Counted from the first letter of the stretch, positions 3,210 through 20,880 are shown. The stretch is DNA of 36,597 nucleotides from Gemmatimonadota bacterium (GCA_046262075.1 JBHENL010000104.1:1-36597); one strand, 5' to 3'. Notes: generated by a model from the sequence alone, not told the origin. A program made the numbers and translations.

Positions 3210-4254
3210 ATGAAACTCGCGCTCTCGGCTGTGTTCTTCACGCTGACTCTCTCCGCCGCGGCGGCAACTCAGGAAAGGGCCGCACCTAACCTGGAGCCGC
3301 GCGGCGAGCGCCTGGACCCTGACGTGCATGCGCCTCCCTGCGGCGGCGGTCACGGAGCCGCGCAGCTCGATGGGGTCCGAGACGCGAATGAGCTGCGCGG
3401 TCGTACCGCACGCGAGCTGGTCTTCACGCGCCGACTCCATGGTGCTGGGCCGCCAGTTCACTGGCCTGCCCACGCCCGAGGTCGTCGAGAGGAACGCGTC
3501 CTTCCCCGATACCACCCGCACGCTGACGGAGCGGCAGGGCATCACCGAGACCCTGCAGCCAGCTGACGATCCGGACGCCAACGACCCGCTCGTGGAGCGC
3601 GCTGGAGACGAGCGCCGCACGGAGGCGCGGGCCGAGAGTGACGCGCGGCCCGAGGCACGAGCCGCCGAGCGGGTGGGCCTCACGTGCGTGAACGTGCCCG
3701 ACCAGGTGACGCTTCGTGCGAAGCCGGGCGCAGCCCCGCAACAGGTCGACGTGGACTGCCTGCTCGTTCCGGAAGCGGAATGGTCGACTCGCGTCGACAC
3801 CATGGTGCTCGGACGGCAGCTCACCGGGCTGCCGACGCCTGCGGTCGGCGAGGACGAGGTCCGGCATCCCGACACGACCGTGACCGTCACGGAGCGGCAG
3901 GGCATCACCGAGACCATGCAGCCGGCCGCTGACGCCGACTCGATCGACCCGCTCATCGACGACGGCCGTCGGCCCACGGAGCGGGCGGAGGTCGATCCTG
4001 CCCCCGCTTCGGTGGCGGCGGGAGTGATGATTCCCCTGAACTTCGCGTGCGTCGCCGTCGCCGAAGGCGCCGCAGAGCTGCGCGAGGACGTGCGGGAGCG
4101 CCAGATGCGATGCCTGCTGATCCCCGATGCCGTCCCGAACTTGATCGATCCGGCGGAGACGGGTCCAACCCCGGCGCCGGGGGACACCGTGACCACCGGA
4201 AGGAGCAGCCGGGGCGACGGCGGCACGCGTGACGCGAGCCGTGCCGGCAGCTGA
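3210..4254 (+). pseudogene. Secreted internal-repeat protein interrupted by a +1 frameshift near 3315 (sequencing error or recent inactivation)
   Basis: RBS GGAGGT and signal peptide MKLALSAVFFTLTLSAAAA in the 3210 frame. Removing one G at 3314/3315 gives ...ERLTLTCMRLP..., which joins ORF 3328-4254 and aligns with the repeat-2 segment ERVGLTCVNVP. Confidence 0.75.
3418..3954 (+). repeat. Intragenic direct repeat, 363-nt period (cores 3418-3591 and 3781-3954)
   Basis: WSSRADSMVLGRQFTGLPTP...PDTTRTLTERQGITETLQPADDPDANDPL versus WSTRVDTMVLGRQLTGLPTP...PDTTVTVTERQGITETMQPAADADSIDPL. Confidence 0.9.
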
Positions 4255-4288
4255 GTCGAGGCAGCGGGCTCGCGAGACGAGGACACTG

Positions 4289-4316
4289 GGGGCCGGCGGG
4301 AACGCCGGCCCCTCTT
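4289..4316 (+). terminator. Intrinsic terminator-like hairpin
   Basis: GGGGCCGGCG-GGAA-CGCCGGCCCC followed by TCTT, 35 nt after stop 4254. Confidence 0.65.
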
Positions 4317-4521
4317 CGCGTATACGTCCCCGCATTCAGAAACATTGCGGATGGAATAACGCGGTCGAATCCACGGCGCGTGCCGAGCGGGCGTTCGCCG
4401 CGAGACCCCGCCCTTCGCGACGCCTGACCCTGGCGCGGCGGTGCGCGCTCCGCCTACCCTGAGCTCCACCGTCCGGTGCACCCGGACGGGCCCTCGGCAC
4501 CGAAAGCGCAGGAGCTCGCCC

Positions 4522-5781
4522 GTGCCCGGCCGCAACTTCCTGTTCGTCCCCGGACCCACCAACGTCCCCGATCGTGTCCTGCGCGCCATGCACCGCGGGA
4601 TGGAGGACCACCGCTCCTCGGCGTTCCCAGAGCTCGCGCTCCCGCTCCTCGACGATCTCAGGGGGATCTTCCAGACCGCCGAGGGGCGGGTCTTCGTGTT
4701 CCCGGCTACCGGCACCGGCGCCTGGGAGGCGGCGCTCACGAATACGCTCTCGCCCGGTGACCGGGTGCTGGCGCCGCGCTTCGGGCAGTTCAGCCACCTC
4801 TGGATCGACCTGGCGCAGCGCATCGGGCTCGAGGTGGACGTGCTGGAGGTCGAATGGGGCGAGGGCGCGCCGCTGGAGCGTATCCAGCAGGTGCTCGCCG
4901 ACGACCGCGCGCGCTCGATCAAGGGTGTCCTGATCGTGCACAACGAGACCGCCACGGGCGTGACCAGCGACGTGGCGGGCGTGCGCCGCGCCATGGACGC
5001 GACCGGGCATCCAGCGCTGCTCTACGTCGACGGCGTGAGCTCGATCGCCAGCATCGACTTCCGCATGGACGACTGGGGCGTGGACCTGGCGGTCACCGGC
5101 TCCCAGAAGGGGCTGATGCTGCCGGCGGGGCTCGGCATCGTCTGCGCGGGCCCCCGGGCGCTCGCCGCGCGCGAGGGCGCACGCTGCGCGCGCGTGTTCT
5201 TCGACTTCGGCGACATGCTCAAGGCCAATGCCGCGGGCTACTTCCCGTACACGCCGTCGCTGCCGCTGCTGTACGGCTTGCGGGAGTCGCTGGCGATCCT
5301 CTCCGAGGAGGGCCTCGAGAACGTCTTCGCCCGCCATCGCCGCCTGGCCGAGGGCGTGCGCGCCGCCATTCACGCCTGGGGATTGCGATTGTGCGCGCGC
5401 GCACCCCATTGGCACTCGGACACCGTGAGCGCCGTGATGGTGCCGCCGGGCGTGGATGGAGCCGAGGTGATCGACATCGCGTTCCGTCGCTACGACCTCG
5501 CACTCGGCGCCGGTCTGGCCCGCGTGTCCGGCAAGCTCTTCCGCATCGGCCATCTCGGCGACCTGAACGAGTTGATGCTGCTGGGTGCCCTCGCCGGGGT
5601 CGAAATGGCGCTGCGCGACGCCGGCGCGGAGGTCGAGTTGGGCAGCGGCGTCGCGGCCGCCGCCGGGCACTACCGCGCGACCGCTCGGCCCCTGGCGGCG
5701 CGCCCCTCGGGGGCGGTATCGCCCGACGCACGACCCGTCGCCGACGGCGCTGCCCGGGCCCGCGCGGCGGCTCCCGCGTGA
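4522..5781 (+). CDS. sgaA: Serine--glyoxylate aminotransferase (class V PLP)
   Basis: GTG 4522 with AGGAG RBS. PGRNFLFVPGPTNVPDRV, HNETATGVTSD, VDGVSSIASIDFRMDDWGVD, PLP lysine motif GSQKGLMLPAG, FRIGHLGDLNELML. Context of mcl/mtk/ppc. Confidence 0.92.
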   Translation: MPGRNFLFVPGPTNVPDRVLRAMHRGMEDHRSSAFPELALPLLDDLRGIFQTAEGRVFVFPATGTGAWEAALTNTLSPGDRVLAPRFGQFSHLWIDLAQRIGLEVDVLEVEWGEGAPLERIQQVLADDRARSIKGVLIVHNETATGVTSDVAGVRRAMDATGHPALLYVDGVSSIASIDFRMDDWGVDLAVTGSQKGLMLPAGLGIVCAGPRALAAREGARCARVFFDFGDMLKANAAGYFPYTPSLPLLYGLRESLAILSEEGLENVFARHRRLAEGVRAAIHAWGLRLCARAPHWHSDTVSAVMVPPGVDGAEVIDIAFRRYDLALGAGLARVSGKLFRIGHLGDLNELMLLGALAGVEMALRDAGAEVELGSGVAAAAGHYRATARPLAARPSGAVSPDARPVADGAARARAAAPA

Positions 5782-6746
5782 GCCACACCCGCCACGACCC
5801 CGCCGCCGTGCGCCTCCAGCGCAGCACGCTGGCGGTCCCGGGCTCGCGCTCCGAGCTCTTCGCCAAGGCTGCCGCCGCCGAGGCGGACGAGATCTTTCTC
5901 GACCTAGAGGACGCGGTCGCGCCTGCGGAGAAGGAGGGTGCCCGCGGCAACGTGATCGCGGCCCTCCTCGAGATCGACTGGCGCGGGCGCGGCAAGACGG
6001 TGTGCGTGCGGGTGAACGGGCTCGACACGCCGTTCTTCTACCGCGATCTGATCGATGTCGTGGAGTCCGCTGGCCAGCGCATGGACACGGTGCTCGTCCC
6101 CAAGGTCGGCGTGCCCGCCGACCTGTACGTGGTGGACGCGCTGCTCACGCAGATCGAGGCCGCGCGCGGGATCCCGCAGCGGATCGGCGTCGAGGCCCTG
6201 ATCGAGAGTGCGCTGGGGCTGTCGAACGTCGAGGCGATCGCGGCGTACGGGGGGCGGCTCGAGGCGCTGCACTTCGGCGTCGCCGATCTCGCGGCGAGCC
6301 TGCGGGCGCGCACGACGAGCATCGGCGGGTTGCATCCGGACTATCCCGGCGACGTGTGGCACGCCCCGCTGGCGCGGGTGGCGGCCGCCTGCCGCGCCTA
6401 CGGCCTCCGCGCCCTCGACGGGCCCTTCGCCGACTTCAAGGACCCCGACGGCTACCGGGCTGCGGCGAGGCGAGCGGCCGCGCTCGGCTACGAGGGCAAG
6501 TGGGCGATCCATCCCTCGCAGGTGGCGCTCGCGAACGAGGTGTTCACGCCGCCCGAAGCCGACGTCGCCCGCGCGCGCCGTATCCTGGAAGCGCTCGAAG
6601 AGGCCGAGCGCGAGGGACGCGGCGCGGCTCAGCTCGACGGCAAGATGATCGACGCGGCGTCGGCCCGGATGGCGACCGCGCTCCTGGAGGTGGCAGAGAT
6701 CATCGAACGCAAGGAAGCCGTGCCCGGAGGGTTTCCCAGCGTCTGA
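5778..6746 (+). CDS. mcl: L-malyl-CoA lyase (CitE/HpcH family)
   Basis: GTGA overlap with sga[71 protein letters not shown]; resembles Methylorubrum MclA as recalled. Confidence 0.88.
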
Positions 6747-6903
6747 GCGCGGCCGCGCCGAGGTCGCGGAGATCGAGGTAAAGGAGGTCGAACGACGGCG
6801 GAGCCGGAGCGAGCCCCCGCCCGAGCATGGAGCGACCGCTGCGCCGAGCGAGGGCTCCGCCCGAGCGAGGCCGCGCCCACAGGGAAGTCACCGCCTAAGA
6901 ATA

Positions 6904-8097
6904 ATGGACATTCACGAGTACCAGGCGAAGGAGCTGCTCGCGGGTTTCGGAGTCGCGATCCCGCGCGGGGGCGTCGCGTACAGCCCGGAGCAGGCGGTCT
7001 ACCGCGCCGAGGAGATCGGCGGCGAGCGCTGGGCGGTGAAGGCGCAGATCCACTCCGGCGCGCGCGGCAAGGCCGGCGGGATCAAGCTATGCGCCACCGA
7101 CAACGAGGTCCGCGAGGCTGCGCGCGAGCTGTTGGGCAAGACCCTCGTGACGCGTCAGACGGGTCCGGAGGGCCGCCCCGTGCACCGTGTCTACGTCGAG
7201 GCCGCCGTGCCGCTCGAGCGCGAGATCTATCTCGGCTTCGTCCTCGACCGGAAGAGCGAGCGGATCATGGTCGTCGCGGCGCCGCAGGGCGGGATGGAGA
7301 TCGAGGAGATCGCGCAGGAGGCGCCCGACTCGATCCTGAGGGAGGTCGTGGAGCCCGCCGTCGGCATGCAGACCTTCCAGGCGCGCGAGCTCGCCTTCGG
7401 CCTGGGCCTGCCCCCGGCCCAGGTGCGCTCGGCGACCGGGAGCATCCTGGGCGCCTATCGCGCCTTCCGCGACCTCGACGCGATGATGGTCGAGATCAAC
7501 CCGCTCGTGACCACGAAGGACGGCGCCGTGCTCGCGCTCGACGCCAAGATGACCTTCGACGACAACGCGCTCTTCCGCCGCCCGTCGGTGCGCGAGCTGC
7601 GCGACTACGCCCAGGAGGACCCGCGCGAGGCGCAGGCCGCCGAGCACGGGCTGAACTACGTGGCGCTGGAGGGCGAGATCGGCTGCATCATCAACGGCGC
7701 CGGGCTCGCCATGGCGACGATGGACATGATCAAGCACGCGGGAGGCCGACCGGCGAACTTCCTGGACGTGGGCGGAGGTGCTTCGCCCGAGCGCATCGCC
7801 GCGGCGTTCCGCCTCGTGCTCTCGGACGCGAACGTGGGTGCGATGCTGGTGAACATCTTCGCGGGCATCAACCGCTGCGACTGGGTCGCGCGGGGGATCG
7901 TGCAGGCGCTGCGCGAGCGCGAGCTGCCGATCCCCCTCGTGGTCCGACTCGCCGGCACGAACGTCGAGGAAGGCCGCCGCATCCTGCGCGAGAGCGGCTT
8001 CGCCATCGTCGAGGCCGAGACCCTGGCCGAAGCCGCCGAGCGCGTGGTCGCAGTCCTGGAATCGAGCCGGCCTGCCGCCGGCGACGGGGTCGGGTGA
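6904..8097 (+). CDS. mtkA: Malate--CoA ligase (malate thiokinase) beta subunit
   Basis: [70 protein letters not shown] (Mtk-type rather than SucC-type NIFGGIVRCD). Confidence 0.9.
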
Positions 8098-9005
8098 GCG
8101 TCCTCCTCGACGAGACCACGCGCGTCCTGGTGCAGGGCTTCACCGGCGACAAGGCGACGTTCCACGCCCGCGAGATGATCGCCTACGGCACGAACGTGGT
8201 GGGGGGCGTGACGCCGGGGAAGGGCGGCGCCCTCCACCTCGACCGGCCGGTCTTCGACACGGTGAAGGAGGCCGTCCGCGAGACGGCGGCGACGGCCTCG
8301 ATCCTGTTCGTGCCCGCCGCGTTCTGCGCCGACTCGATCATGGAGGCGGCCGACGCCGGGATCCGCCTGGTGGTCGCGATCACCGACGGCATCCCCGCGC
8401 AGGACATGATGCGCGTGAAGCGCTACCTCTTCCGCTATCCCCGGGAGCGCCGAACGACGCTGATCGGTCCCAACTGTGCGGGGATCATCAGCCCCGGCAA
8501 GGCCATGCTCGGGATCATGCCGGGCCACATCTACGAGCGCGGGCCGGTCGGCGTGGTCACGCGCTCGGGCACGCTGGGGTACGAGGCGGCCTCGCAGATG
8601 AAGGCGCTGGGGATCGGCGTGAGCACGAGTGTGGGCATCGGCGGCGATCCGATCAACGGCACTTCGTTCCGCGACATCCTGGCGCTGTTCGAGCAGGACG
8701 ACGAGACGGAGGCCGTCATGATCATCGGCGAGATCGGTGGCCCGCAGGAGGCGGAGGCGGCGACGTACTTCAGGGAACGCATGACGAAGCCGGTGATCGG
8801 CTACGTCGCGGGTCTCACGGCTCCGCCCGGCAGGCGCATGGGCCATGCGGGCGCCATCATCTCCGCGTTCGGCGACAGCGCCGCCGAGAAGGCGGAGATC
8901 ATGCGCTCCGCAGGCCTCGCCGTGGCCTCCACGCCCTCGGAGCTGGGCTCGACCATCCAGGCCGTGCTGCGCGGCCGGCCCGCGAAGAGCGTCGCCGCTA
9001 CCTGA
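8094..9005 (+). CDS. mtkB: Malate--CoA ligase alpha subunit (SucD-like)
   Basis: GTGA overlap with mtk[43 protein letters not shown], phospho-His motif RRMGHAGAI. Confidence 0.88.
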
Positions 9006-9018
9006 GCCCGCCGCGCCG

Positions 9019-9993
9019 GTGACCACCCGCCCCACGGTGACGGCGACCCGGCGCTTGCCGGCGGCCGTCGAGGACCAGCTGGGGCTCCGCTACGACGCCC
9101 GCCTCAACGCCCACGACCGGCCGCTCGATGCCGGGGAGCTGCGGGAGGCTCTCGCGTCGTCCGACGCGCTCCTCTGCACGGTCACGGACCGGCTCGACGC
9201 CGGAGTTCTCGCCGCCGAGCCCCTCCGCGCGCGCATCCTCGCGAGCTTCGGCGTGGGCTTCGACCATATCGACCTCGACGCCGCGCGCACGCGGGGGCTG
9301 CGGGTCACGAACACCCCCGACGTCCTCACAGACGACACGGCCGACCTGGCGGTGACGCTCATGCTCATGGCCTGCCGCCGCGCGGGTGAGGGTGAGCGCC
9401 ACGTGCGCGCGAACGCCTGGAGCGGCTGGCGCCCCACGCACATGCTCGGCACGCGCGTGACCGGCAAGACGCTGGGGCTGGTCGGGATGGGCCGGATCGC
9501 GCGCGCGGTGGCGCGGCGCGCGAAGCACGGCTTCGGCATGCGCGTGCTGTTCCAGGACCCCAACCCTCCGCCGCCGGAGGTCGCGGCGGAGCTGGGAGCC
9601 GAGTCGCGCGGGACGCTCGAGGAGCTGCTCGAGGCCGCCGACGTGGTCTCGCTGCACTGCCCGGCCACGCCCGAGACGCACCACCTGATCGACGACGGCG
9701 CCCTCGCGCGGATGAAGCCCAGCGCGATCCTGGTGAACACCGCGCGCGGCGACGTCGTGGACGAGGCCGCCCTCGTGCGCGCGCTCCGGGACGGGCGGAT
9801 CGCCGGCGCCGGCCTCGACGTGTATGAGCGGGAGCCGCGCGTCCCCGACGCGCTGCGCGCGCTCGAGAACGTGGTGCTGCTGCCCCACCTCGGCAGCGCC
9901 ACGCTCGAGTCGCGCGTGGCCATGGGCCTGCGGGCGATCGAGAACCTCGACGCGTTCTTCTCCGGTGCTCCCCTCCGCGACGCCGTCGTCTGA
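9019..9993 (+). CDS. D-glycerate dehydrogenase / hydroxypyruvate-glyoxylate reductase (D-2-hydroxyacid dehydrogenase family)
   Basis: GTG 9019. GVGFDHID, VTNTPDVLTDDTADL, GLVGMGRIA, VSLHCP, LVNTARGDVVDE, GLDVYEREP, LPHLGSAT. The Hpr role is inferred from context. Confidence 0.85.
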   Translation: MTTRPTVTATRRLPAAVEDQLGLRYDARLNAHDRPLDAGELREALASSDALLCTVTDRLDAGVLAAEPLRARILASFGVGFDHIDLDAARTRGLRVTNTPDVLTDDTADLAVTLMLMACRRAGEGERHVRANAWSGWRPTHMLGTRVTGKTLGLVGMGRIARAVARRAKHGFGMRVLFQDPNPPPPEVAAELGAESRGTLEELLEAADVVSLHCPATPETHHLIDDGALARMKPSAILVNTARGDVVDEAALVRALRDGRIAGAGLDVYEREPRVPDALRALENVVLLPHLGSATLESRVAMGLRAIENLDAFFSGAPLRDAVV

Positions 9994-9994
9994 G

Positions 9995-12784
9995 GTGCCG
10001 CCGCCCGCCGGCGCGACCGCCCGGCTCGAGCCCTACGCCGCCGCCTCGCTCCCCCGCTCCACCGCGCCCGCCGCGGCGAGCGCCGCGGCGTACGCGGACG
10101 AGGTCGCCTCCCTGCTCTTCGACCTGCTGCTGGACGTGCTGCGCATCCACGCGCCCGCCGTCGAAGCGCTGTGGCGCGGCGAGCCCGCGCCGGAGCACGC
10201 GCCTCCCGATCTGACGCCACGGCTCCTGCAGGCGCAGGGGATCTGGTTCCAGCTGCTCTCGATCGTGGAGCAGAACGCGGCGATGCGCCGCCGGCGCCAG
10301 ACGGAGGCCGAGCGCGGGCCCGCCGCGTTGCGCGGCACGCTGGCACAGGTGGTCGCCGCCGCCGCCGCGGAGGGAGTGGGCGCCGACGAGATGCGGACCC
10401 TCCTGAAACGCCTGCGTGTCAGGCCCGTCCTCACCGCGCACCCCACGGAAGCCAAGCGCGTGACCGTCCTCGAACGCCACCGGCGCATCTACCGCCGGCT
10501 CGTGGACCTGGAGTCGCCGCGCTGGACGCCTCGCGAGCGCCGGGAGCGGATCGCCGCGCTGCGCGGCGAGATCGAGCTCCTCTGGCTCACCGCGGAGCTG
10601 CGGCTGGAGCGGCCGACCGTCCAGCAGGAGGTGGCGTGGGGTCTGCACTTCTTCCAGGAGACGCTCTTCGGCAGCGTGCCGGCCGTGCTGCGCACGCTCG
10701 AGGAGGCGCTCGAAGCCGCCTGGCCTGCCGAGCGCTTCGACGTTCCCGCCTTCTTTCAGTTCGGCTCCTGGATCGGGGGCGACCGCGACGGCAATCCCTT
10801 CGTCACGAACGCGGTCACGCGCGGCACCGTGCGCGAGAACCGGCTCGCCAGCCTGGCGCGCTACCGCGAGCGACTGCTCCAGCTCCTGCGCGCGCTGTCG
10901 GTCACCGAGCGAGCCACTCCCGTGCCCGCGGCGTTCCGGGAGGCGCTCGCGCGTGCGCTGGAGGCGAGCGGCGACGCCGCGGGCATCGCGGCACGCAACC
11001 CCGGCGAGATCTTCCGGCAGTTCCTCGCGTGCTCCCTGCGCCGTCTCGACGCGACGCTCGCTCTCGCCGGCGGCGGCGCCCCCGCCGGAGACGGCGAGCC
11101 GTACCGCGGCGCGGACGAGCTTGCGGCCGAGCTCCGCGCCGTGGAGGAGGCGCTCGCGGGAATCGGCAGCGGCGCCCTGGCGATCTCGCTCGTGCGACCC
11201 CTGCGCCGGGAGGTCGAGACCTTCTCGTTCAGCACGGTGCGGCTGGACCTGCGCGAGAACGCCGCGCGGGTGCACGCGGCCCTCGTCGAGCTCTGGCGCG
11301 CCAGGACCGGGGCCGACGGTGAGCCTCCGGGAACGGGGACGCCGGCATGGGAGGCGTGGCTGTCCAGCGAGCTGGCACGGCCCCGCTCCGGCGCTCGACC
11401 GGCGCCCGTCCTCTCCACTGCCGCCGGGGAGACCCTCGGTCTCTTCCGCCTCGTGAGCGAGGTTCGCGCGGAGGTGGACCGGGAGGCCTTCGGCACCTTC
11501 ATCCTCAGCATGACCCGCGACGTGGACGACGTCCTCGGCGTCTACCTGCTCGCGAAGGAGGCCGGTCTCTTCGCCGACGCCGCGGGGGTCGAGAGCTGCA
11601 CGCTGCCGATCGTGCCGCTCTTCGAGTCCATCGACGACCTCCGTCGCGCGCCCGAGGTGATGCGGCGCCTCCTGCAGATTCCCCTCGTCCGGCGCAGCGT
11701 GCGCGCGCAGGGCGGCGTGCAGGAGGTCATGATCGGCTACTCGGACTCGAACAAGGACGGGGGGTTCCTGACCTCGAACTGGGAGCTCTCGCGGGCCCAG
11801 CTGCAGCTCACGCGGCTGGGCGACGAGTGCGGCGTCCCGATTGCGTTCTTCCACGGCCGCGGCGGTTCCGTGAGCCGCGGGGGGGCGCCCACCGGACGCG
11901 CGATCGCGGCGCAGCCGGCGGGCTCCGTGCGCGGCCGGTTGCGGATCACCGAGCAGGGGGAGGTGGTCACGTTCAAGTACGCGAACCGCGGGACGGCCGC
12001 CTACCAGATCGAGCTGCTCGCGGCCAGCGTGGTGGAGCACGCGCTGCGCTCGGAACGCGAGCAGGCTTTCGTCCGCGTCGGGGAGTTCGAGGAGGCGCTG
12101 GAGGCGCTCTCCGGGGCGGCGCACGCCGCCTATCGCGGCCTGATCGAGCACCCCGCTCTCGTGGCCTACGTGCAGGCCGCCAGCCCGCTCGAGGAGATCG
12201 CGCTCCTGAACATCGGCTCGCGTCCGGCGCGGCGGACGGGTGCTCGCACGCTCGACGACCTGCGAGCCATCCCGTGGGTCTTCGCGTGGTCCCAGAACCG
12301 CCACGTGATCCCCGGGTGGTACGGCGTGGGCACCGGCCTCGCCACGTTCGTCGAGGTGCGCGGTGCCGCGGGCGAGGACCTCCTGCGGAGGATGTTCGAG
12401 CGCTCCCGGATCTTCCGTCTGATCCTCGACGAGGTCGAGAAGACGCTCGCGCAGGTCGATCTCGATGCGGCGCGGGAGTTCGCGGATCTGGTGGCGGACG
12501 CCGACGTGCGGGAGGCGATCTTCGGGAGGATCGAGGAGGAGTACCGGCGCACCGTCGCGAGCGTGCTGCGGGTGAGCGGGGGCGCGTTGCTCGCGGAGCG
12601 TTTCCCCCGCTTCCGGCGCCGCCTCGAGCGCCGGCTCGCCACCCTGAGCCAGGTGAGCCACAGGCAGGTCGAGCTGCTCCGGTCCTTCCGAGCCGCGGGA
12701 GACGAGGCGAGTCGAGAGCGGCACCTGGCGGCGCTGCTGCTCTCGATCAACTGCACCGCCGCGGGGCTCGGCGCCACGGGCTGA
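9995..12784 (+). CDS. ppc: Phosphoenolpyruvate carboxylase
   Basis: VLTAHPTE, GSWIGGDRDGNP, QEVMIGYSDSNKDGG, FHGRGGSVSRGG, LRAIPWVFAWSQNR, C-terminal AAGLGATG. GTG start 1 nt after the upstream stop. Confidence 0.96.
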   Translation: MPPPAGATARLEPYAAASLPRSTAPAAASAAAYADEVASLLFDLLLDVLRIHAPAVEALWRGEPAPEHAPPDLTPRLLQAQGIWFQLLSIVEQNAAMRRRRQTEAERGPAALRGTLAQVVAAAAAEGVGADEMRTLLKRLRVRPVLTAHPTEAKRVTVLERHRRIYRRLVDLESPRWTPRERRERIAALRGEIELLWLTAELRLERPTVQQEVAWGLHFFQETLFGSVPAVLRTLEEALEAAWPAERFDVPAFFQFGSWIGGDRDGNPFVTNAVTRGTVRENRLASLARYRERLLQLLRALSVTERATPVPAAFREALARALEASGDAAGIAARNPGEIFRQFLACSLRRLDATLALAGGGAPAGDGEPYRGADELAAELRAVEEALAGIGSGALAISLVRPLRREVETFSFSTVRLDLRENAARVHAALVELWRARTGADGEPPGTGTPAWEAWLSSELARPRSGARPAPVLSTAAGETLGLFRLVSEVRAEVDREAFGTFILSMTRDVDDVLGVYLLAKEAGLFADAAGVESCTLPIVPLFESIDDLRRAPEVMRRLLQIPLVRRSVRAQGGVQEVMIGYSDSNKDGGFLTSNWELSRAQLQLTRLGDECGVPIAFFHGRGGSVSRGGAPTGRAIAAQPAGSVRGRLRITEQGEVVTFKYANRGTAAYQIELLAASVVEHALRSEREQAFVRVGEFEEALEALSGAAHAAYRGLIEHPALVAYVQAASPLEEIALLNIGSRPARRTGARTLDDLRAIPWVFAWSQNRHVIPGWYGVGTGLATFVEVRGAAGEDLLRRMFERSRIFRLILDEVEKTLAQVDLDAAREFADLVADADVREAIFGRIEEEYRRTVASVLRVSGGALLAERFPRFRRRLERRLATLSQVSHRQVELLRSFRAAGDEASRERHLAALLLSINCTAAGLGATG

Positions 12785-12796
12785 GACCGCCCGCCA

Positions 12797-12821
12797 CCGC
12801 CCGGGTCCGTGACCCGGGTGG
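12797..12821. terminator. Hairpin between convergent ppc and lipoprotein genes
   Basis: CCGCCCGGGTC-CGT-GACCCGGGTGG; no U-tract. Confidence 0.4.
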
Positions 12822-12855
12822 CTGCCGGAAGGCTGCGCGGGCGATCGCGCCGGGG

Positions 12856-13491
12856 CTAGCGCACCTGGATGTTCCCCTGCTCCACCGCGTGCGGTCCGAA
12901 CCTGGGGTTCGGCACGGCAGGGCTGTCGCAGAAGGCCTCGTTCGCCGCCTCGTCTCCCAACCCGAACAGCGTGCTCAGGTCCGGCGGGCTCTTCGCTCCC
13001 TCCCCGTTGTCGATGGACTGGAACCAGGCGAACGTCCCCACCGGAACGGTCGGATCGTTCGTCTTCTCGATCGGTCCCCCCCACTTGGCGCGGTTCTGCG
13101 TCATGGGCGGGATGTCTTCGAAGCGCTCGAGTACGGGCGTGTCGTAGACCCGAAAGCACGTCACGCTTCCCTTGTACGTATACGGTACCCCCGCCGTCCC
13201 GTGGTCCGTCTGCTCGTAGTTGAAGGATCCCGTGACGGTGCCGTCGGCCGCCCGCTTCGCCTGGAACGTCAGCCGATTGTCGACCGCGCCCCCGAAGATC
13301 CCGCCGTTGAAGTCAGCGGGGATCGTGAACTTGAACCCGCCGCTCGCCATGTTGACGAAGCGCCCGGCCTGCACGGCCTCGCGCCCGCCCGCGGCGCTTT
13401 CGCTGGGTGAGGTGACCAGCTCGGACTCGGACGAGCAACCCAGCACGGCCAGGCTGCCCACGACTGCCAGCGCACGTCGTGTCACGCTCAT
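12856..13491 (-). CDS. Hypothetical lipoprotein (beta-rich domain with DNGEG and C-terminal GNIQVR motifs)
   Basis: AAGGAG RBS and ATG 13491; lipobox MSVTRRALAVVGSLAVLG-C; two further Cys (possible disulfide). Confidence 0.75.
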   Translation of the reverse strand: MSVTRRALAVVGSLAVLGCSSESELVTSPSESAAGGREAVQAGRFVNMASGGFKFTIPADFNGGIFGGAVDNRLTFQAKRAADGTVTGSFNYEQTDHGTAGVPYTYKGSVTCFRVYDTPVLERFEDIPPMTQNRAKWGGPIEKTNDPTVPVGTFAWFQSIDNGEGAKSPPDLSTLFGLGDEAANEAFCDSPAVPNPRFGPHAVEQGNIQVR

Positions 13492-13915
13492 GAGGCGCTC
13501 CTTCTGGAAGGATGGTGAGGCGCGCCGGCGGGTCACGGGCCACCGCGCGCGTGGGGGATCGGACCGCAGCCGAGTCCCGAAGCGACGGTGGCATGGAGTC
13601 GCGGAAACGTCTTGAACGATCGGAACGCGCTGGAACGCGATTAGCCTGCGGCAGAGCTGGCAGGCGGATCCCAACGGACGAGAGCCGCGGGCTGGGATGG
13701 CCCGCGGCTCTTGGCTTGGACGGCGCGTGCGCCGGAGACGAGGCGCGGCCTGGTGGCGGCGCAGGCTCGAGGCTGACGGCCCGCCCTCCGGGGAGGGGTA
13801 GGTGGACCGCAGGGATCTCTCCTGCTGCCGCCGGCAGATCCGCGCAAGCCAACGCTGCCCTTCGCGATCCGGCCGCGAGATCGGCCGCCGGACGGATCGG
13901 GGTCGGTCTTTCGAG

Positions 13916-16487: not shown

Positions 16488-17876
16488 ATGCGCAGCATCC
16501 TGGGGATTCTCGCGGCAGGCTCGATCTGCTGGGCCCTGCTCGTGGCCTGTGACGACGATGCCGATCCGGGCGGTCCGAACGGCCCTCGAGATCCGGTGAT
16601 CACGAACGTGAGCCCCTCCGAGGCGGTGGCTGGACAGACCGTGACCATCACCGGCTCGAACTTCGGGTTCGACGCGAGCCTCGTAGCCGTCACGTTCGAC
16701 GCTATCATCGGGCCGATCGTCTCCGTCTCGTCCAACACGATCGTCGCCGTGGTCCCCTCTTCGCTGCCACCGGGCGCGACGACGCTCCGCGTCTCCGTCT
16801 CGGGCGCCTCCACCACGGCGAGCGCCACGATCACGATCGTCGAGCCGCCCCGACCGGTCATCAGCGGGTTCGATCCCGACACGGCCGTGGCCGGAGACAC
16901 TCTCACGATCCTGGGACAGGACTTCGGGGAGAGCGTCGGAGAGACCAGCGTCACCATCGGCGGAGCGCCGGCCCAGATTCTCTCCGTGACCAATGCCGCC
17001 ACCGTCGTGGCGATCCCCGGTACGCTGAGCGGTACGGTCGCCGTGGTCGTGACCGTGCTGGGCCAGGCCTCGGCGCCCCGGACGCTGACGGTGGTAGCGA
17101 GGGGTCCCTCCTCGGCGGGTGCCGTCTTCGGCAGGGTGACGAGTGTGGCGACCGGCCAGGCGATCGGCGGTGCCGAGGTCACGACGCGCCCGGCGACGGC
17201 GAGCGTCCTCACCGACGCCGAGGGGAACTACCGGATCGAGGATGTCGGCCCGGGCACGTTCTCGGTCACGGCCGTCAAAGAGGGGTTCGACTCGGCTACC
17301 GTGCAGGTGACCGTTGCGGCAGGCGAATCGACGATGGCGGATCTGGCTTTGAGGCCGCTGGGCCAGAGCACGATCTTCGGCCGCGTCACGAATGCCTCCA
17401 CGGAAGCCGGTATCGGCGGCGCGCAGGTCACCCTCAGCGTCATCGCCGACACGATCCCTGTCATCGGAGACACGATCCCGATCGCGTCCGATCTCACCGA
17501 CGGCCTCGGGAACTATCGAATCGAGAACGTGAGCCCCGGCACGTACGTCCTGACCGCGCGGGCGAACGGCTTCGCCTCGCTCTCGGTCGAGGTGACCGCC
17601 GTGGCCGGTCAGCTCGTGTTCGTGAACTTTCCGCTCACGCCCGCCACGGCGGCGGTGACCGTTCGCGAAGCCGTGCTGGCCATGTGGTCCGGTCCCCGGG
17701 CCGACCGCAGCCCCACGCGACCCTGGAGGGCCGATCGGCAGGCACGGGGCGTCGGGAGCGCCAGACGACGGAAACGGCCCGGGTCGCAGAAGCAGGGAGG
17801 CCCTGCAGGCGGAACGCCTTGCAGGGCCTCGGGTCGAGTGGTGGAGCTGATCGGGCTCGAACCGACGACCTCCTGA
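16488..17876 (+). CDS. Lipoprotein with two IPT/TIG and two carboxypeptidase-regulatory-like domains (3' end doubtful)
   Basis: GGGAGG RBS; lipobox LLVA-C. PVITNVSP..TVTITGSNFG and PVISGFDP..TLTILGQDFG; FGRVT...TDAEGNYRI..PGTF and FGRVT...TDGLGNYRI..PGTY. 21-nt tandem duplication at 17439-17480. The tail reads into the tRNA. Confidence 0.8.
   Translation: MRSILGILAAGSICWALLVACDDDADPGGPNGPRDPVITNVSPSEAVAGQTVTITGSNFGFDASLVAVTFDAIIGPIVSVSSNTIVAVVPSSLPPGATTLRVSVSGASTTASATITIVEPPRPVISGFDPDTAVAGDTLTILGQDFGESVGETSVTIGGAPAQILSVTNAATVVAIPGTLSGTVAVVVTVLGQASAPRTLTVVARGPSSAGAVFGRVTSVATGQAIGGAEVTTRPATASVLTDAEGNYRIEDVGPGTFSVTAVKEGFDSATVQVTVAAGESTMADLALRPLGQSTIFGRVTNASTEAGIGGAQVTLSVIADTIPVIGDTIPIASDLTDGLGNYRIENVSPGTYVLTARANGFASLSVEVTAVAGQLVFVNFPLTPATAAVTVREAVLAMWSGPRADRSPTRPWRADRQARGVGSARRRKRPGSQKQGGPAGGTPCRASGRVVELIGLEPTTS
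17797..17830. terminator. Hairpin immediately downstream of tRNA-Ala
   Basis: GAGGCCCTGCAGGCG-GAA-CGCCT(T)GCAGGGCCTC, 8 nt beyond the tRNA CCA. Confidence 0.55.
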
Positions 17877-17914
17877 GTGCGATTCAGGCGCTCTCCCAGC
17901 TGAGCTACAGCCCC
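17839..17914 (-). tRNA. tRNA-Ala(CGC)
   Basis: GGGGCTGTAGCTCAGCTGGGAGAGCGCCTGAATCGCACTCAGGAGGTCGTCGGTTCGAGCCCGATCAGCTCCACCA: 76 nt, G3:U70 pair, anticodon CGC, encoded CCA. Confidence 0.97.
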
Positions 17915-19027: not shown

Positions 19028-19945
19028 TCACGGTGCGCCTCCCTCCGAAGCTCCGCGCTGGACGAAGGCACTCATGGCGATCCAGGCCTTGCGCGCACGC
19101 GGCAGCGACGCCCGCTCGACCAGGACTCTCCGGCCCATCCGTTCCATCCGCACGAGCAGCTCGCCGTAGAGCGCGGCGAGGACCCGGGGGCAGTAGCGCT
19201 GGCGCGGCTCGAGCAGCGGCAGCAGCCCGCGACCGCTGGCGAGGAAGCCACGCGCACGCCCCACCTGGAAGGCGAGCAGGGCCTCCAGGTCCTCGAGGCG
19301 CCGCTCGCCCGCGCTGCCCCTCCCATCCTGCCTTGCCGCCTGCAGGAGTTCGGTCTCCTCCACGCCGAAGCGGCGCAGGTCCTCCAGCGGCAGATACAGC
19401 CGGTCCCGGCCGGCGTCCTCCCCCACGTCGCGCAGGATGTTGGTGAGCTGCATCCCGATCCCGAGGTCCATGGCTCGGCGGCGAGCGGTGTCGTCGCTCC
19501 GCCCGAAGATCGGCAGGCACAGCAGGCCGACGGCCGAGCCCACCTGGTAACAGTAGCCGCAGAGGTCGTCGAAGGTCTCGTAGCGCCGCGGCGTGAGGTC
19601 GCGCTCCACGCCGGTCAGCACCTCCAGGAAGTCCTCCTGCCGGATGCCATACGCCCGCACCGCGTCCTGCAGGGCCAGGTCGCGAGGGAGCGACGGCTTA
19701 CCGAGGAAGATCTCCTGCAGGCGCTGCCGCTGCGCGGCGAGCGCCCGGCGGGCCGCATCCGGCGGACGGCCGTCGTCGGCGGCATCGTCGGCCTCGCGAC
19801 AGAACGCGTAGACCGCGTGCAGCGCCCGCCGCGCGCTCGGCGGCTGTCCCACGAAGGCGAACGCGAAGTTGCGCGCGCGCCGCCGCACGACGCGCGCCGC
19901 CTCCTGGTAGCCCTGCTCGACCGCCTCGCGTTGCTCGCTCCTCAT
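19028..19945 (-). CDS. hpnD: Squalene/phytoene synthase family, presqualene diphosphate synthase HpnD-like
   Basis: NFAFAF, YAFCREADDAADD, YCYQVGSAVG, LGIGMQLTNILRDVGED..RDRLYLP; directly follows hpnC with an ATGA overlap. Confidence 0.78.
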   Translation of the reverse strand: MRSEQREAVEQGYQEAARVVRRRARNFAFAFVGQPPSARRALHAVYAFCREADDAADDGRPPDAARRALAAQRQRLQEIFLGKPSLPRDLALQDAVRAYGIRQEDFLEVLTGVERDLTPRRYETFDDLCGYCYQVGSAVGLLCLPIFGRSDDTARRRAMDLGIGMQLTNILRDVGEDAGRDRLYLPLEDLRRFGVEETELLQAARQDGRGSAGERRLEDLEALLAFQVGRARGFLASGRGLLPLLEPRQRYCPRVLAALYGELLVRMERMGRRVLVERASLPRARKAWIAMSAFVQRGASEGGAP

Positions 19946-20880
19946 CGGACGGCGAGGGTCAGCGCTTCGACGGCGAGATCCAGCAGGCGCCGCCGGCGCG
20001 GGACGCGCACGTCGCTTCGCAGGAGGTCTCCCGCGCGCGCCTCCAGCTCGTCCACGATCGCGCGCCCGCCGCGGAGGAAGAGCCGCAGGACGGCGCGCGG
20101 CGCGGCCGGGAACGCCTCGGGGAGAACCTCCGCCGAGGCGAGCAGCGCGCGCGTGCGGTCCAGCTGGAACGCCAGGAGATCGCGCACGGCTCGGGTGGGG
20201 CGCTCGCGCCGCAGGTCGTCCTCGGCGACGCCGAAGCGCCGCAGGTCCTCGAGCGGGACATAGAGTCGGTCGCGCACCCGCAGGTCCTCGCCCACTCCCT
20301 GCCAGTGGTTCGCGAGCTGCAGCCCGGTGCAGAGCGCGTCGGCCGGGCCCGCCAGGCGCGGGTCACCGGCGCCGAAGAGCGCGAGCACGATGCGACCGAC
20401 GGGGTTCGCCGACAAGGCGCAGGATTCGAGCAGGTCCGCGAGGGTCTCGTACCGCGAACGGAGCTGGTCTCGGCGATTGGCCTCGATCAGGGCGCGGAAC
20501 GGATCGGGCGAGAGGCCGCGCGACCGGATCAACCGCGCCGCGGCTCCAACGGCTGCGGGGACGCCGTCCTCGCGAGCGCCGTCGGCGAGCACGCGGTCGA
20601 GCGCCCGCTCCCAGTGGTCCAGTGCCGCGAGCCGCTCCCCCGGCAGGGCGCTGCCCTCGTCTCCCAGGTCGTCCGTGGCACGCGCGAAGGCGTAGACGGC
20701 CGCGAACGGGTCCCTCAGCTCCGGCGGCACCAGCCGCGAGAGGACGGGAAAGTTCTCGTAGTGCCGCAGGGCCAGCTCGAGCGCACGTGGGAGCGGATCG
20801 GCGCCGGCGACGGGTTCGCGCTCGACGTGGCGGAACGCCGCGGATGCACGCTCCCGGGGGCGACCTGGAGGAGCTCTCAC
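19942..20880 (-). CDS. hpnC: Squalene synthase HpnC (hydroxysqualene synthase)
   Basis: Diagnostic HYENFPV, YAFARATDDLGDE, SANPVGRIVL, LQLANHWQ, DRLYVP. GTG 20880 overlaps the upstream stop. Confidence 0.85.
   Translation of the reverse strand: MRAPPGRPRERASAAFRHVEREPVAGADPLPRALELALRHYENFPVLSRLVPPELRDPFAAVYAFARATDDLGDEGSALPGERLAALDHWERALDRVLADGAREDGVPAAVGAAARLIRSRGLSPDPFRALIEANRRDQLRSRYETLADLLESCALSANPVGRIVLALFGAGDPRLAGPADALCTGLQLANHWQGVGEDLRVRDRLYVPLEDLRRFGVAEDDLRRERPTRAVRDLLAFQLDRTRALLASAEVLPEAFPAAPRAVLRLFLRGGRAIVDELEARAGDLLRSDVRVPRRRRLLDLAVEALTLAVR

Follow-up and report, generated by a model that had tools for sequence, protein, structure and literature searches.

A conserved six-gene cluster of Gemmatimonadota as a likely serine-cycle operon, with a divergent candidate isocitrate lyase

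A contig from a Gemmatimonadota bacterium (GCA_046262075.1, JBHENL010000104.1:1-36597), analysed here over its whole length of 36,597 nucleotides and referred to as the window, carries at positions 4522-12784 of the + strand six co-directional reading frames resembling sgaA, mcl, mtkA, mtkB, hpr and ppc. The locus raises the question of whether its host assimilates one-carbon (C1) compounds through the serine cycle, and with it the questions of where the module came from and how the cycle would be closed. The frames and the gene families proposed in an initial annotation of this DNA were confirmed by profile and structure matches, and we consider it very likely, from the sequence evidence set out below, that the six genes constitute a serine-cycle operon conserved in a lineage of methylotrophic Gemmatimonadota. 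The host genome (G000) is a binned genome of 2.66 Mb in 258 contigs, with 72.2% GC, about 95% completeness and 1.66% estimated contamination, and the window is its contig C104. Its placement in the Gemmatimonadota agrees with the MtkA sequence, whose closest named relatives come from metagenome-assembled genomes (MAGs) of Gemmatimonadales/Gemmatimonadaceae (78-82% identity, against 64-74% for Pseudomonadota, among the matches listed).

The gene mtkA (6904-8097, 397 aa) encodes the beta subunit of malate--CoA ligase (malate thiokinase); its product exceeds the curated cut-off of its NCBIfam model (NF010647, 698.5 bits, cut-off 604) and is distinct from a SucC paralogue encoded on contig C191 of G000 (394.7 bits). 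It is followed by mtkB (8094-9005, 303 aa, GTG start), encoding a succinate/malate--CoA ligase alpha subunit with CoA_binding and Ligase_CoA domains and a SucD model score of 433.7 bits. The MtkB translation contains a GHAGA stretch, which we take to be the phospho-histidine motif, and mtkB comes after mtkA in every locus that extends that far. Upstream of this pair, mcl (5778-6746, 322 aa, GTG start) encodes a candidate malyl-CoA/beta-methylmalyl-CoA lyase of the HpcH/HpaI (CitE-type) family (Pfam HpcH_HpaI, 144 bits). In the NCBIfam search it matched no curated bacterial Mcl model, and over its full length it aligned with the solved structures 5ugr ("Malyl-CoA lyase/beta-methylmalyl-CoA lyase", 374 bits) and 4l9y ("Malyl-CoA lyase", 304 bits). 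The last gene, ppc (9995-12784, 929 aa), encodes a phosphoenolpyruvate (PEP) carboxylase (Pfam PEPcase, 793.9 bits; NCBIfam, 762 bits, under the cut-off of 815) that is 73% identical to its counterpart in the sister genome G002 from residue 4 on.

The remaining two genes encode members of broader enzyme families. The sgaA-like gene (4522-5781, 419 aa) specifies a class-V aminotransferase (Pfam Aminotran_5), a candidate serine--glyoxylate aminotransferase, whose best NCBIfam model is BhcA (599.9 bits, cut-off of 650 not reached) and which among solved structures best matches 6pk1, "Serine--glyoxylate aminotransferase" (503.5 bits, residues 2-383); it shares 78% identity with its G002 orthologue. 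The hpr gene (9019-9993, 324 aa) encodes a D-2-hydroxyacid dehydrogenase of GyaR/GhrB-like type, a candidate hydroxypyruvate reductase (2-Hacid_dh_C, 212 bits), with glyoxylate reductase PRK13243 as best curated model (303 bits, under the cut-off of 455), and shares 62-78% identity with its positional counterparts in other Gemmatimonadota loci. We infer the substrates of SgaA and Hpr from their conserved position in the operon.

At a GTGA overlap (5778-5781) the mcl start codon shares bases with the sgaA stop, a second one at 8094-8097 joins mtkA and mtkB in the same way, and gaps of 13 nt (9006-9018) and 1 nt (9994) separate mtkB from hpr and hpr from ppc. All of these had been described in the initial annotation and were found in the sequence; it did not mention the 157-nt spacer between mcl and mtkA (6747-6903), in which an AGGAGG stands about 110 nt 5' of the mtkA start. 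Judged from the ends of tblastn matches, this spacer is shorter in relatives (about 45-55 nt in G002 and G003, about 84 nt in locus L044). The start codons are backed by alignments to sister genomes beginning at residues 1-5, and the GC content at third codon positions is 0.91-0.96 across all six genes. Neither the region 5' of sgaA nor the mcl-mtkA spacer matched an Rfam family, and a scan of 4000-13500 for sigma-70-like promoters and intrinsic terminators, which is ill-suited to Gemmatimonadota, returned none. Public sequencing runs carrying the operon, RNA runs included, were not listed. An inverted repeat, GC-rich and perfect over 8 bp, with a 3-nt loop and no T run, starts 16 nt past the ppc stop (12800-12818) and may mark the end of the operon.

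Link to C1 metabolism

The window holds no other C1-metabolism gene and, as had been noted at the outset, lacks glyA, mdh, C1-oxidation genes and the genes for glycerate kinase and enolase. Other contigs of G000 supply most of what a methylotroph would require, which gives good support to the methylotrophic reading of the initial annotation. A XoxF-like pyrroloquinoline quinone (PQQ) alcohol dehydrogenase of the methanol/ethanol family (TIGR03075, 625.7 bits, cut-off 480) with a WDYDG stretch is encoded between a cupredoxin-like PQQ-associated gene before it and an SBP_bac_3 (XoxJ-like) gene after it, and PqqC is present (320 bits, cut-off 240). Fae (222 bits) is encoded next to an Mpt_N-domain, Mtd-like dehydrogenase that is 46% identical to the product of one of the two open reading frames (ORFs) that separate hpr from mtkA in Methylorubrum rhodesianum; the second ORF there, which we take to be fch, has no match in G000. 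The genome further encodes Mch (279.6 bits), formate--tetrahydrofolate (THF) ligase (FtfL, FTHFS model, 852 bits), a FolD truncated at a contig end, serine hydroxymethyltransferase (SHMT, 434 bits), enolase (Enolase_C, 390 bits) and a glycerate kinase of GlxK type (TIGR00045, 217.5 bits against 168.45). The PQQ dehydrogenase, glycerate kinase, Mch and Fae each occur in all four genomes of the family, and the THF ligase in three of the four, the miss being the 65%-complete G001. A MOFRL-type glycerate 2-kinase was considered and found in none of the four, which have the GlxK-type kinase instead, and the Calvin cycle was rejected as the assimilation route, the RuBisCO large subunit not having been found in G000.

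A second PQQ alcohol dehydrogenase of G000, with a WDLDA stretch, is split over two contig ends, C34:5770-7431 and C251:7058-7882, whose protein sequences overlap. A sulfocyanin-like cupredoxin gene adjoins the part on C251.

From this gene content, a route can be proposed in which the XoxF-like PQQ alcohol dehydrogenase would oxidise methanol in the periplasm, the tetrahydromethanopterin (H4MPT) route of Fae, the Mtd-like enzyme and Mch would convert formaldehyde to formate, and FtfL and FolD would bring the carbon onto tetrahydrofolate. SHMT would then join methylene-THF and glycine to serine, SgaA would transfer the serine amino group to glyoxylate, and Hpr would reduce hydroxypyruvate to glycerate, which the GlxK-type kinase and enolase, both encoded outside the operon, would convert to PEP. 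Carboxylation by Ppc would yield oxaloacetate; once this is reduced to malate, MtkAB would form malyl-CoA, and Mcl would cleave it to glyoxylate, which is recycled, and acetyl-CoA as the product.

The distribution of the genes was surveyed in 401 Gemmatimonadota genomes drawn evenly from the phylum. An MtkA-type match was present in 76 of them (70 over the cut-off, 5 cut at contig ends, and G049 full-length but under the cut-off), covering 18 of the 148 sampled genera, chiefly in families f4 (66 of 166 genomes) and f8 (8 of 93). Fae was present in 84; both proteins occurred in 71 genomes, MtkA only in 5, Fae only in 13 and neither in 312. These counts associate the operon far more closely with formaldehyde metabolism than with glyoxylate metabolism in general. 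One genome within the counts, the unpublished G093, has MtkA, Fae and the isocitrate lyase-like gene described below; dropping it together with G008 and G009, likewise unpublished and two of the 41 close relatives considered later, shifts each tally by 1-2 and leaves the conclusions unchanged.

Several observations weigh against a methylotrophic serine cycle in this host. Neither the aminotransferase nor the reductase reaches any curated cut-off, and the genomes with MtkA and Fae are interrelated, so that the counts above describe an association among phylogenetically non-independent genomes and are not a statistical test. Solved quinohaemoprotein and ethanol dehydrogenases and XoxF match the PQQ dehydrogenase about equally well (414, 395 and 394 bits), and because of these near-equal scores to ethanol and methanol dehydrogenases the substrate of the enzyme is not fixed; we infer methanol from the gene context and the literature on XoxF3. 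Malate dehydrogenase was not found in G000 with the Ldh_1_C and Ldh_1_N models or by tblastn of the G002 enzyme. As it was found in G002 and G003, its absence is likely an assembly gap; either that, or another enzyme of G000 fills the step from oxaloacetate to malate. Finally, the pathway genes are scattered over contigs of a bin with some estimated contamination, and a binning artefact is argued against because the sister genomes hold the same gene set.

The same genes could also be read as serving glyoxylate, glycolate or C2 metabolism and not C1 assimilation. On this reading Mcl and MtkAB would interconvert malate and glyoxylate plus acetyl-CoA, and the aminotransferase and the reductase would handle glyoxylate, glycine and glycerate without methanol. 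The best curated models point in this direction, being an aspartate--glyoxylate enzyme (BhcA) for the aminotransferase and a glyoxylate reductase for Hpr, and so do a malate synthase in G000 (C2:20617-21354; L139:5070-7775), which was not found in the three other family genomes, and the five MtkA-type carriers that lack Fae. Yet Fae accompanies MtkA in 71 of 76 carriers and occurs in 13 of the 325 genomes that lack MtkA, and G000 has a full gene set from methanol to methylene-THF. The initial annotation had allowed that a host without glycerate kinase and any methylene-THF supply would use the cluster for C2 metabolism; both are present in G000. The translational linkage of ppc and hpr to mtkAB also fits a complete cycle better than a bypass of the glyoxylate shunt. 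A beta-hydroxyaspartate cycle (BhcABCD) was rejected: the BhcA score stays under its cut-off, the gene stands in a row with mcl, mtkAB, hpr and ppc, and no bhcB-, bhcC- or bhcD-like gene adjoins the operon, the search for these having covered its neighbourhood and not the rest of the genome. We therefore regard a C2 function as unlikely and retain the serine cycle as the probable role of the operon.

Serine-cycle methylotrophy of Gemmatimonadota is already in print, and the operon is not the first evidence of it. In the passages concerned, Butterfield et al. 2016 (PMC5103831) describe soil Gemmatimonadetes MAGs with a XoxF-type PQQ methanol dehydrogenase, PQQ synthesis and the entire H4MPT formaldehyde route, together with a route from THF to serine, a serine-glyoxylate transaminase and a PEP carboxylase. 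They name a "glycerate kinase", not a glycerate 2-kinase, and a "canonical malate-intermediated" serine pathway, unlike that of Rokubacteria. G000 belongs to the same phylum, has the same inferred physiology and has candidate genes for all the functions that these passages report. Likewise, passages of a 2024 study (PMC10875860) describe XoxF3 systems of Gemmatimonadetes and state that most of the XoxF-bearing genomes in that study have the complete serine pathway, and another (PMC11264602) counts Gemmatimonadetes as one of the classes that possess methanol dehydrogenase. The operon order, its spread in the phylum and the return from acetyl-CoA to glyoxylate in Gemmatimonadetes are not described in the passages of PMC5103831 and PMC10875860, whose supplements may hold them. 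Literature listings and passages on mtkA, on the serine cycle with xoxF and on methylotrophy in Gemmatimonadota gave no account of operon order or cycle closure in the phylum.

Conservation and age of the operon

All six genes occur in identical order in G002, and the five genes reached by a short contig of G003 do so as well, with 72-86% amino acid identity. As far as the loci reach, the same order was found in all seven named Gemmatimonadales/Gemmatimonadaceae loci and in 12 of 12 loci from the phylum sample; the sample of named loci as a whole consisted of the best 80 of the matches listed.

The order differs from that of Methylobacterium and Methylorubrum, as had been claimed initially and as comparison with the named loci bears out: there it is sga-hpr-(two ORFs)-mtkA-mtkB-ppc-mcl, here sga-mcl-mtkA-mtkB-hpr-ppc. 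Nothing inside the cluster studied here corresponds to the two ORFs between hpr and mtkA, which we take to be mtdA and fch. Identities to the Methylobacterium-type homologues, whose biochemical roles the proteins here would share, are 68-72% for MtkA, 72-75% for MtkB, 57-74% for SgaA, 60-63% for Ppc and 56-60% for Mcl. Hpr is only about 33% identical to the HprA-type gene product of the Methylorubrum rhodesianum locus and represents a different branch of 2-hydroxyacid dehydrogenases, consistent with its initial description as a GyaR/GhrB-type enzyme. The order seen here does recur among Pseudomonadota: six gammaproteobacterial MAG loci (L066, L071, L107, L111, L117 and L129) have all six genes in identical order, which in Aminobacter aganoensis and Mesorhizobium sp. 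Root157 holds for the first five. These same-order clusters encode the same type of Hpr (53-64% identity), with MtkA at 66-74%. An sga gene followed directly by mtkA was also seen in a Verrucomicrobiia MAG (L109) and a Candidatus Cybelea (Vulcanimicrobiota) MAG (L133).

Phylogenetic trees were built for MtkA and Mcl. The MtkA tree comprised 101 rows, namely the window, 94 loci and six SucC outgroup rows (one of them L008, from G008), and was computed under LG+G4 with a quick search and the Shimodaira-Hasegawa-like approximate likelihood ratio test (SH-aLRT) as the only support; the Mcl tree comprised 77 rows, two loci having been dropped for short matches and 16 having no Mcl in reach. Neither tree contains f8 rows. 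In the MtkA tree, 21 Gemmatimonadota rows formed a clade (SH-aLRT 90), with a long-branched Gemmatimonadaceae row (L078) unresolved beside it, and the three f1 sequences formed a subclade (SH-aLRT 96). The Gemmatimonadota joined a Methylobacterium-type clade (55 rows, SH-aLRT 99), and the SucC root nests this group among other Pseudomonadota. In the Mcl tree all 21 Gemmatimonadota rows made up one clade (SH-aLRT 99), which grouped with the same-order Pseudomonadota (38 rows, SH-aLRT 100). The two trees disagree on the nearest proteobacterial relatives, and both are compatible with a single exchange between the phyla long ago, after which the genes were inherited, lost or spread within the Gemmatimonadota.

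A recent acquisition of the module by G000 or its family from a proteobacterial methylotroph has some points in its favour. Among 41 close relatives, MtkA over the cut-off was found only in f1 (G000, G002 and G003) and in none of the 31 genomes of f2, which belongs to the same order; the flanks of the operon differ between G000 and G002, and the rooted MtkA tree places the Gemmatimonadota clade among Pseudomonadota. Against this stand the nearest MtkA and Mcl sequences, all from Gemmatimonadota and in one clade (78-83% identity against 64-74% for Pseudomonadota, among the matches listed), the separate f1 subclade (SH-aLRT 96 and 92), a host-like composition (73.1% GC in the cluster, 71.4% in the rest of the window, 72.2% in the genome) and the breadth of the trait across sampled genera. 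On composition, conservation and tree position, recent transfer into G000 itself was rejected, and recent acquisition at the level of the family appears very improbable. Of the horizontal acquisition suggested in the initial annotation, what stands is at most that Pseudomonadota and some ancestor inside the Gemmatimonadota exchanged the module in the distant past; a recent import does not stand, given the shared order, the host-like GC and the single clade. The operon is probably an old, widely shared trait of the phylum that was exchanged once with Pseudomonadota long ago. Family f1 may have received it from another Gemmatimonadota lineage, or f2 may have lost it.

Return of acetyl-CoA to glyoxylate

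The proposed cycle would also need a return from acetyl-CoA to glyoxylate. Methylorubrum uses the ethylmalonyl-CoA pathway, and in the ICL-plus variant of the serine cycle isocitrate lyase (ICL) regenerates glyoxylate. Ccr was not found in G000 (best score 22 bits), and none of the 401 genomes of the phylum sample had a Ccr over the cut-off among at most four candidates scored per genome. The ethylmalonyl-CoA pathway is unlikely because no Ccr was found, in which the Gemmatimonadota would differ from Methylorubrum. A canonical isocitrate lyase was likewise not found in G000. The search for a regeneration route called for by the initial annotation led instead to a divergent ICL-like gene whose product scores under the curated cut-offs.

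This gene (C236:1006-2226; L025:748-1965; about 385 aa) lies directly 3' of a type II citrate synthase gene (C236:1-744) in G000, and the same arrangement is present in G002. No second citrate synthase was found in G000. Aligned to solved isocitrate lyases, the protein keeps most of the signature stretches. An ICL-family enzyme beside citrate synthase, with no Ccr and with canonical ICL in other Gemmatimonadota MtkA carriers, resembles the ICL-plus variant. Two features tell against such an assignment and set the G000 enzyme apart from that variant: the scores fall well below the curated thresholds (TIGR01346 and NF011645, 152.2 against 275.9 and 154.4 against 562 bits; PrpB, 88 against 354), and the protein reads RTCGH where two aligned solved isocitrate lyases show KKCGH, which we take to be the catalytic motif. 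We also considered the citrate synthase/ICL-like pair as part of a methylcitrate cycle, a reading weakened because PrpD was found in none of the four family genomes and because no other citrate synthase was found in G000, in searches that covered PrpD and not AcnD or PrpF.

The distribution of the ICL-like gene bears on its role. Orthologues with 62-75% identity occur in 53 of the 401 genomes, 49 of which carry MtkA. Canonical ICL (550-593 bits) was present in all five tested MtkA carriers without the ICL-like gene and exceeded the cut-off in none of the five tested carriers with it, a complementary pattern that held in each of the 10 genomes tested among the 76 MtkA carriers. This complementary distribution suggests the ICL-like enzyme as the isocitrate lyase of its branch, and a phylum that runs an ICL-plus serine cycle, in which acetyl-CoA would probably return to glyoxylate by citrate synthase and the divergent ICL-like enzyme and not by the ethylmalonyl-CoA pathway. 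A more specific proposal, which we put forward tentatively as possible rather than probable, is that the Gemmatimonadota use an ICL-plus cycle free of the ethylmalonyl-CoA pathway, and that f1 and several f4 genera swapped the canonical ICL for the shorter RTCGH enzyme (about 385 aa). Operonic with the only citrate synthase and nearly confined to serine-cycle carriers, this enzyme may then represent a new ICL subfamily for methylotrophic glyoxylate regeneration.

On the same contig, adjoining the ICL-like gene, C236:2648-4582 (- strand) encodes a full-length aldehyde:ferredoxin oxidoreductase (AFOR_N, 372 bits; AFOR_C, 223 bits). Such an enzyme would be unexpected near genes of aerobic methylotrophy; its substrate could be formaldehyde or other aldehydes.

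Surroundings of the operon and implications

The flanks of the operon in the window include ThrS, two squalene/phytoene-synthase genes, MacB-type permeases, a tRNA and others. The two squalene/phytoene-synthase-family genes adjoin each other at 19028-20870 (- strand), are HpnD- and HpnC-like by position, and are possibly part of a squalene/hopanoid locus; after them come a gene that matches DUF1402 weakly and one of xylose-isomerase-like TIM-barrel type. The tRNA gene lies at 17842-17914 (- strand; Rfam RF00005, 62 bits).

Gemmatimonadota abound in soil, and methanol is one of the major volatiles that come from plants. The conserved operon would offer a clean metagenome marker for counting the serine-cycle methylotrophs of this phylum, for which mtkA is the best choice because it exceeds the cut-off of a curated model and is cleanly told apart from sucC. 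The marker aside, the operon confirms published genome-resolved work, and what is worth following is the possible closure of the cycle, free of the ethylmalonyl-CoA pathway, by a divergent isocitrate lyase-like enzyme.

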